From Patescibacteria group bacterium UBA2105 (lineage in GTDB: Bacteria; Patescibacteriota; Minisyncoccia; Phycocordibacterales; UBA2100): DNA of 64,000 nucleotides. Below, in pieces: positions 46,414 through 46,980 of this stretch. Below the pieces are notes generated by a model. The model was not told the DNA's origin, did no database searches, and saw only the letters and a program-made list of their open reading frames with translations. The position numbers and the translations under genes are program-made. Location: contig DCYR01000007.1 in the NCBI GenBank assembly GCA_002331495.1, forward strand, positions 29,689 through 93,688. The letters are read 5' to 3'. Numbering within the stretch: the stretch's first letter is position 1; each line of letters begins with the position of its first letter.

Positions 46414-46980
46414 TTATCTCTTTATGCACCTCTCGAATGTGATCTCTTTATAATCTTTCTCGTTAATACCTTTCATCTCATAAATTTGCATAGTTGAGCA
46501 AACAAATTTGTCTGAAAGATCTAAACCAAGTTTCTGGGCAGCCGCATCAACATTTTCATCGCTAGAACTTTCGATCTCAAGATATGTTTCTAACATTGGC
46601 CAAGTATCAAAATCAAATTCCACGCCGTCTAACTGCCATCGGACTCGTTTGTTTTCCTCATAGAACTTCAGTGCTAAGCCTATAGACTCGAGGAGGCGGG
46701 CCGTGGTTTCGAAATCGGAAACTTCAACTTCGTGCTCGATCATGCCTTCGTCCTTTCCGTGCGCTTCACCCCGGATGCGTTTTTTGAATGTAAGCGTCAC
46801 TTTCTCTCCCTCATCACGAAGGCGTACCCACGCACCATCGCTATCAAGACGTAGGTCAGGATAATCAAACACCTTTCGTCGATACAAGTACTCGCCGACC
46901 CTCTCGGCGCCAAGCTCCTTGAGCTTCCCCTCAAGTTCTGCTACATCAACATCCAACCAAATACCTTCAAACTCCTGCAT
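46414..46980 (-). CDS. CYTH-domain protein (CyaB/thiamine-triphosphatase-like triphosphate tunnel fold) with variant N-terminal motif
   Basis: Topology match to class IV adenylate cyclase/ThTPase ([31 protein letters not shown]...LEIE). The N-terminal ExExK is replaced by IWLDVDV. 4 nt after atpG and 19 nt before atpD. Confidence 0.55.

Follow-up and report, generated by a model that had tools for sequence, protein, structure and literature searches.

A CYTH gene between atpG and atpD in Kaiserbacteria-like bacteria: a probable triphosphohydrolase carried as cargo of the ATP synthase operon

Why should a gene of the CYTH family stand inside an ATP synthase operon, and does its product take any part in the work of the synthase? 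The question arises from a 64,000-nt stretch of contig DCYR01000007.1 of Patescibacteria group bacterium UBA2105 (the window, hereafter), in which a marine Kaiserbacteria-like bacterium carries a CYTH gene between atpG and atpD of its ATP synthase operon. An earlier note, made from the sequence alone, had proposed a polyphosphate or nucleoside-triphosphate handling function coupled to the ATP synthase. The analysis presented here favours, with a confidence somewhat better than even, another answer, namely that the gene encodes an accessory triphosphohydrolase, probably active, which rides in the operon as cargo.

The protein matches the Pfam CYTH profile PF01928 with E=8.4e-14 and 52.2 bits, against a gathering score of 23.2, and the profile search suggested in the earlier note thereby upholds its assignment to the CYTH/triphosphate tunnel metalloenzyme (TTM) proteins. 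An AlphaFold2 model built from 66 homologues, with a mean predicted local distance difference test score of 94.3, predicts the eight-stranded beta-barrel of the tunnel fold, and a conserved C-terminal segment (residues ~150-188) extends past the Pfam match. Conservation was counted in alignments of 66 to 120 homologues, the 120 being the best matches, and in 140 representatives for the wider family. Residues D39, R53, R55, K66, R68, D77, E82, K105, E109, R112 and E137 are invariant in the 66 to 120 homologues, and E3, E5, E84, D125 and E135 are conserved in at least 90% of them. The basic (R53, R55, K66, R68, K105, R112) and acidic (E82, E84, D123, D125, E135, E137) residues predicted to oppose each other in the tunnel are all invariant or near-invariant. 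The proteins encoded in atp operons (the atp clade) keep the same tunnel residues without change, with a single departure at E84 of one member. In SaTTM, metal and phosphate are bound by E5, E7, E135, E137, R56, R58, K69 and R112 (PMC8233210), and the conserved residues of the window protein align with those ligands of two metal ions and triphosphate. The presence of both glutamates in the beta-8 ExE motif indicates the hydrolase type and not the cyclase type (PMC8233210). The W-V-R-L-R stretch at residues 51-55 aligns with W53-L-R55-R-R57 of human thiamine triphosphatase (ThTPase) and with A-L-R-L-R of SaTTM; the tryptophan of this W-x-R-x-R motif is 90% conserved in the family. Judged from these features of its sequence, the protein is most likely a soluble, single-domain CYTH/TTM phosphohydrolase, neither a subunit of the ATP synthase nor an adenylate cyclase.

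The arrangement atpG-CYTH-atpD is found in the window and in L017/18/19/31, L020, L021/22/23, L024/25, L030/32 and L035. At least seven assemblies made independently (ENA, JGI, Logan, NCBI and Tara) share it, with CYTH protein identities of 56-74%. P0002 to P0006, the five closest CYTH relatives for which DNA context was available (62-74% identity), are all encoded between atpG and atpD, the spacing around CYTH in the atp-embedded relatives is 1-10 nt, and the lineages spanned reach atpG identities as low as about 52%. The core six atp-embedded CYTH proteins are monophyletic in 95.5% of neighbour-joining bootstraps. CYTH is at least as well conserved between lineages (62-74% identity) as atpG, atpH, atpF and atpC, and nonsynonymous divergence (dN) of 0.19-0.31 with saturated synonymous divergence (dS) points to purifying selection. 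The recurrence in independent assemblies together with the purifying selection rules out misassembly and indicates that the gene is maintained and functional; the synteny comparison thus settles the doubt, raised in the earlier note itself, whether the insertion might be unique to this assembly. The sole hint at an assembly artefact, or at a spurious open reading frame (ORF) from a chimeric contig, is that the nearest relative lacks the segment. The same gene order in the independent assemblies, at the identities given, already refutes that idea, and the occurrence of the protein on 10 contigs, the strong Pfam match, the high-confidence predicted fold and a dN far below dS leave it virtually no probability. 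The atp-embedded gene of L035 (1368-1934, plus strand), added by the metagenome scan, encodes the rare derived residues G6, T7 and D141 of the core atp clade. The protein joins the core clade in 7.5-17% of neighbour-joining bootstraps and is otherwise placed elsewhere; its placement may be a long-branch artefact, or the slot may hold a second lineage here.

Is the gene, then, present wherever a closely related ATP synthase is encoded? The closest operons were found by an atpG search and their atp neighbourhoods compared (L111, L112 and L113), and none of the three has it. In the closest relative, L111, whose atpG is 97% identical in amino acids and ~88% in nucleotides (dS 0.87), atpG directly adjoins atpD, within a neighbourhood like that of the window (NTP-transferase, 391-aa protein, atpBEFHAGDC, RNHCP, truB, RND pump). 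The blastn breakpoints of the missing segment pair window position 46986 with L111 position 5917 and window position 46399 with L111 position 5935. The atpG/atpD junction is likewise empty in L112 (atpG 78%), and in L113 (atpG 76%, Kaiserbacteria GCA_002401925.1) the slot is occupied by two unrelated orphan ORFs of 122 and 127 aa (5917-6672, plus strand), which match no Pfam or PADLOC family. Neither a CYTH remnant (tblastn) nor an obvious target-site repeat was found at the slots of L111-L113. Since a collection of 5.8 billion proteins yielded no CYTH protein of 74%-100% identity to that of the window, the sister species appears to be without a close orthologue altogether.

Because the window shares the gene with L017 although L111, which lacks it, is the closer relative, the simplest history is an ancient insertion followed by repeated clean losses. 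Other genes have entered the operon too. In L024 a further orphan ORF of 83 aa separates atpG from CYTH (1328-1579), and L020, a Tara scaffold, has a PIN-domain gene (129 aa, PF01850 E=1e-16; 6680-7069, plus strand) between atpA and atpG, a toxin-like gene in an otherwise syntenic atp operon. With CYTH, orphan ORFs or nothing at the atpG/atpD junction, and with the additional genes of L020 and L024, the junction behaves as a variable cargo slot and the operon tolerates insertions. The functional coupling to ATP synthase put forward in the earlier note is not indicated by this pattern: L111 and L112 are without the gene, L113 has other ORFs in its place, and the family occurs elsewhere in unrelated neighbourhoods. 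Hydrolysis of polyphosphate or of organic triphosphates remains our best guess for the function, and it would belong to the family at large and not to the atp context.

A further feature that had seemed to set the gene apart is strand beta-1. The N-terminal consensus of the 120 best homologues is M-E-E-I-E-V-K-F-L-N-I-D, with E3 and E5 99% and K7 94% conserved, and alignment to it identifies the motif of the window protein as E3-F-E5-G-I7. Both glutamates of the E-x-E-x-K hallmark are therefore kept and the lysine is replaced by isoleucine. The earlier note had read IWLDVDV in place of the motif; its register was off by four residues, and of the replacement it described only that of the lysine stands, E3 and E5 being retained. 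In the atp clade the motif takes the form ExEG[I/T/V], and strand beta-1 of its members is too diverged for the Pfam profile to align. About 14 substitutions are fixed in the clade, including E2Q, I4F/Y, V6G, F29G, T75G, I83H, K92T, Y115W, P132T, W141D, I148A and N175K.

Does the loss of K7 mark an adaptation to the ATP synthase? Among the top 120 homologues all seven non-K sequences fall within the atp clade, and 17 of the 17 K-bearing relatives examined lie away from atp genes. A loss specific to atp-embedded genes was nevertheless rejected, as the metagenome scan brought in K-less proteins without atp neighbours: the T-clade with E-x-E-[IL]-T (L049/50, L063, L068/69, L071/72/74 and L080, none near atp genes) and the singleton L085 with E-x-E-V-I, also not near them. 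The sisters of the K-less groups carry the lysine (L079, and L034 for the atp clade), and all non-K sequences together were monophyletic in none of 200 neighbour-joining bootstraps. K7 was thus lost independently at least three times in relatives without atp linkage, where the T-clade and L085 are found. In the 140 family representatives position 7 is K in 81 (58%), R in 35 (25%) and another residue in 24 (17%; T, H, Q, I, N, D etc.), whereas E3 and E5 are conserved in ~100%, and E3, E5, R53 and E137 in about 95-100%. As K7 is variable and was lost also outside atp operons, it is the labile member of the motif in this family, and its loss is no signature of coupling to the ATP synthase. That loss, here to isoleucine, is a tolerated, recurrent variation which probably alters affinity or specificity without destroying function. 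The ExExK lysine is not among the key ligands named by Martinez 2015 and the Cet1 docking paper, which is only weak evidence about its role. Compensation for K7 by a basic residue at position 83 (H83 or R83), seen in two K-less clades, was considered and rejected, as this position should face out of the tunnel and H83 also occurs together with K7.

The family as a whole is widespread in Patescibacteria, with members in Kaiserbacteria, Nealsonbacteria, Nomurabacteria, Jorgensenbacteria, Paceibacterota, Minisyncoccales, WWE3 and metagenome-assembled genomes labelled 'Saccharibacteria'; an exhaustive profile search gave 60 clusters (50% identity) at E<=1e-30 and 1481 at E<=1e-10. Its neighbourhoods away from atp genes are not conserved and have a loose theme of nucleotide and phosphate metabolism. 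The most recurrent neighbours within 3 kb, counted over 95 loci, are a canonical CYTH paralogue (10), nucleoside diphosphate kinase (7), NUDIX hydrolases (6), HAD phosphatases (5) and CTP synthase (5). The canonical paralogue, e.g., L071:6627-7178 (plus strand), has ~183 aa, begins MRKEIEVKA, matches PF01928 with E=1e-19 and carries a small residue instead of tryptophan before R-x-R. The coexistence of two CYTH types suggests a distinct substrate for the tryptophan-bearing one (W-type), probably an organic one. No paper in the literature collection searched joins CYTH proteins with the ATP synthase operon or with Patescibacteria. The window protein is a new variant in a known superfamily, and what is unusual is the location of its gene.

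How might such cargo have been acquired, and how might it act? A CYTH gene may have come to occupy the atpG/atpD junction in one Kaiserbacteria-like lineage, where it would have been inherited for long and lost or replaced in several sublineages. By homology, E3, E5, E135 and E137 with E82, E84, D123 and D125 would hold two divalent metal ions, and R53, R55, K66, R68, K105 and R112 would clamp the triphosphate inside the beta-barrel. W51 would stack on an aromatic or heterocyclic moiety in an organic triphosphate that resembles a nucleotide or thiamine, and a metal-activated water would remove the terminal phosphate by the two-metal mechanism described for TTMs. Several points weigh against an active enzyme that merely rides in the operon. 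The substrate and activity of the family are deduced by homology only. The activity of the window protein could be low as K7 is missing, and Val37 aligns with the tyrosine of the catalytic Tyr/Lys dyad that has been described in ThTPase and NeuTTM. That the gene has stayed in its slot across deeply diverged lineages could mean that co-expression with ATP synthase is selected for. Moreover, the substitutions fixed in the atp clade suggest some shift of function, surface or packing after relocation, which pure passive cargo would not explain.

Among the alternatives, one would tie the enzyme to the chemistry of its neighbours. F1Fo has been reported to make thiamine triphosphate (ThTP) from thiamine diphosphate and inorganic phosphate in E. 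coli, and a functionally coupled scavenger could remove a triphosphate side-product such as ThTP, its level being matched to that of the synthase through the operon. The family bears the W/YxRxR signature, which Vogt et al. found only in ThTPases and otherwise in plant TTM1/2 (PMC8233210), and a profile of residues 1-62 has human and mouse ThTPase as its best sequence matches in the PDB (E=0.0013), with W51 on W53. Retention of the gene at the atpG/atpD junction across deep divergence would fit as well, and the canonical CYTH paralogue present in many Patescibacteria could take care of inorganic triphosphate, freeing the W-type for an organic substrate. However, W-x-R-x-R is family-wide and most members lie far from atp genes, the gene is missing from the nearest relative and from others, Tyr39 of ThTPase is Val37 here within a marginal similarity (17-23% identity), and plant TTM1/2 have the same motif yet prefer pyrophosphate (PMC8233210). 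On balance we regard such a scavenger as unlikely. Its stronger form, in which the W-type family would be the first bacterial ThTPase-like or organic-triphosphate hydrolase and would have been recruited to the atp operon of the Kaiserbacteria-like lineage as a proofreading partner of the ATP synthase, destroying ThTP or some other aberrant triphosphate of the synthase's own making, appears distinctly improbable.

A role without catalysis is another alternative. With K7 gone and its surface remodelled, the protein could have lost catalysis after relocation and now serve as an accessory of the ATP synthase, either a nucleotide- or polyphosphate-sensing regulator or an F1 assembly factor, and might offset a missing C-terminal domain of the epsilon subunit. 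The fixed clade substitutions include outward-facing and helix positions (4, 6, 29, 83, 141, 148), and strand beta-1 of the atp clade has moved beyond the reach of the Pfam profile. The epsilon subunit (44622-44891, minus strand) has 89 aa and comprises the beta-sandwich alone, without the C-terminal helical regulatory domain, and the delta subunit (49496-49879, minus strand), at 127 aa, is shortened and aligns to positions 58-170 only of the OSCP profile. The short epsilon is, however, found also in the CYTH-less relatives (89 aa in L111, 93 aa in L112, 87 aa in L113), so its truncation does not correlate with CYTH. The metal and phosphate residues other than K7 are invariant in the clade, unlike in known CYTH pseudoenzymes, K7 is lost in non-atp clades too, and the gene is dispensable in the sister species, which leaves little room for such an accessory. 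Smaller still is the probability that the product is a class IV (CyaB-type) adenylate cyclase making cyclic AMP beside the ATP synthase. Homologues are named 'adenylyl cyclase' or 'adenylate cyclase class 2' and there is a weak match to TIGR00318, but its 34.3 bits fall below the cut-off of 57.95, which leaves these names unsupported. Class IV cyclases have an HFxxxxExExK motif, a small residue for the first clamp arginine and alanine for the second beta-8 glutamate (PMC8233210). All three determinants fail here: R53 is present, beta-8 has ExE and not ExA, and the HFxxxxExExK extension is impossible because the protein (M-Q-E-F-E) starts two residues before E3.

The evidence thus favours an optional passenger over a new partner of the ATP synthase, a modest curiosity of genome organisation. 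It demonstrates that even the conserved atpG/atpD junction can host optional cargo in the ultra-small genomes of Patescibacteria, with the PIN gene of L020 as a comparable case one junction upstream (atpA/atpG). The analysis also corrects the 'adenylate cyclase' annotation of the family and defines a bacterial CYTH subfamily with aromatic-x-R-x-R, a signature previously reported only for animal ThTPases and plant TTM1/2. The natural variants at position 7 (I, T, V, R, H) make up a ready set for probing the contribution of the ExExK lysine. The one thread that could make the finding important is a ThTPase-like signature beside an enzyme that reportedly makes ThTP. We know of no specific bacterial ThTPase, and a role in ThTP removal, if true, would join this lack to the puzzle of ThTP synthesis by F1Fo.

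The layout of the locus is summarized in Table 1. The earlier note was accurate here: the ORF coordinates bear out the 188-residue reading frame, the sequence confirms both gaps around it, a Pfam match supports each atp gene in the order given, and the peptides it quoted, including EFDFDTWP...LEIE, are present in the translation. All eight atp neighbours are F-type ATP synthase genes, each matching Pfam above the cut-off. The GC content of the CYTH gene (45%) and of its third codon positions (46%) lies within the range of the neighbouring genes, and a foreign origin was rejected on this ground. Membership in anti-phage defence was likewise rejected, the protein matching no PADLOC family at E<=0.01. 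No second CYTH copy was found in the window with either the W-type or the canonical paralogue as query.

Table 1. Positions of the CYTH gene, its motifs and its surroundings in the window
Feature	Position	Strand	Basis or remark
CYTH/TTM gene, 188 aa, ATG start, TAA stop	46414..46980	-	probable accessory cargo gene in the atpG/atpD slot
atpG (F1 gamma), 305 aa	46985..47902	-	PF00231 E=1.6e-79
atpD (F1 beta), 459 aa	45015..46394	-	PF00006, PF02874, PF22919
atp gene array atpB-E-F-H-A-G-[CYTH]-D-C	44622..51777	-	ORF list and Pfam
4-nt spacer, atpG stop (TAG, 46985-46987) to CYTH ATG	46981..46984	-	
19-nt spacer, CYTH stop (TAA) to atpD ATG	46395..46413	-	
586-bp segment (spacer, CYTH, part of second spacer) absent from L111, 17 nt instead	46400..46985	-	blastn
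Strand beta-1 motif E3-F-E5-G-I7, degenerate ExExK	46960..46974	-	translation EFEGI
W51-V-R53-L-R55, W/YxRxR signature (aromatic and two phosphate-binding Arg)	46816..46830	-	translation WVRLR
E135-I-E137, beta-8 ExE metal-binding motif, both Glu present	46570..46578	-	translation EIE, aligned to SaTTM EIE
Sigma-70-type consensus TTGACA-18-TATAAT, perfect; candidate promoter of a unit including CYTH	53062..53091	-	consensus match only, not evidence of function

The earlier note had also held the CYTH gene to be almost certainly co-transcribed and co-regulated with the ATP synthase. Co-transcription remains very plausible from the sequence, because the gaps are tiny, no terminator-like hairpin occurs on the minus strand from 47,900 to 44,600 (atpG through atpC), and the arrangement is kept in the independent assemblies. 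The gene would be read through from the atp promoter within an atpB..atpC transcript, and would then be produced whenever the ATP synthase is. A promoter or terminator of its own was considered and rejected, as the promoter-like matches are weak (9/12) and at a chance-level number and no minus-strand terminator is seen. The sole perfect sigma-70 consensus in the region stands 5' of a 393-aa protein gene (51806-52987, minus strand) which directly precedes atpB, so this gene may open the atp transcription unit. Its product has hydrophobic N- and C-terminal stretches and an FN3/purple-acid-phosphatase-N-like domain (PF16656 E=7e-7). Genes of comparable length (338-399 aa) occupy the same place in L017, L111, L112, L113 and L021, with a weak PF16656 match recorded for the L017 and L111 products only. 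Neither the CYTH gene nor any of the atp genes has a visible Shine-Dalgarno-like motif 5' of it.

At the other end, atpC is followed on the same strand by an RNHCP-domain gene (102 aa, PF12647 E=2e-29) and then, with a 4-nt overlap, by truB (the two genes together at 43427-44544, minus strand). The order atpC-RNHCP-truB recurs in L020, L021, L111 and L112, and L113 has RNHCP with no truB called after it. The recurrence of this order in most relatives suggests that the co-directional array probably reaches past the atp genes. Of the 66 ORFs with 90 aa or more in the window (1-64000), nearly all run on the minus strand; the exceptions, on the plus strand, are 21566-22864, an RND efflux pair at 38618-43430 and three short unannotated ORFs (110-154 aa).

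How does the window protein compare with the systems already described? The archaeal and bacterial inorganic triphosphatases of the TTM type (SaTTM/Saci_0718, 7NS8-7NSF; PH1012, 2DC4; Pfu, 1YEM; NeuTTM; E. coli YgiF) share 18-23% identity with it, together with the beta-1 glutamate pair, the R-x-R clamp, the beta-4 lysine, R112 and the beta-8 ExE, and without cyclase determinants. It differs from them in W51, which stands for a small residue (A54 in SaTTM), in the isoleucine at the place of the ExExK lysine and in the extra C-terminal segment. Mammalian ThTPase (THTPA; 3TVL, 3BHD, 5A64), the best PDB match of the N-terminal half, aligns W53, which stacks on thiazole, with W51, R55/R57 with R53/R55, E7/E9 with E3/E5, K11 with position 7 (isoleucine here) and the catalytic Tyr39 with Val37. 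The identity is about 20%, and the window protein is bacterial and smaller. The Tyr39/Lys65 catalytic dyad of ThTPase (PMC8615392) is therefore not complete in it; the invariant K66 on beta-4 may be the counterpart of Lys65.

In comparison with CyaB (YpAC-IV, 2FJT/3N0Y; TIGR00318), the window protein is without the HF motif, keeps R53 and E137 and scores under the profile cut-off. Plant TTM1/TTM2 (7Z67) are kinase-fused and without ExExK and the beta-8 ExE, whereas the window protein is single-domain with both ExE motifs intact. Mediator Med18/Med20 and ciliary Jhc1 belong to the same fold family and indicate that the TTM fold can be reused as a protein-binding module; in these pseudoenzymes the entire ExExK and further catalytic residues are gone, whereas the window protein keeps all metal and phosphate ligands but one lysine. 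Extra genes in atp operons are themselves familiar: atpI and small genes upstream of atpB are co-transcribed non-subunits at the 5' end that encode small membrane proteins. The window gene, in contrast, encodes a probable soluble enzyme, lies at the atpG/atpD junction, and differs in its presence even between close relatives.

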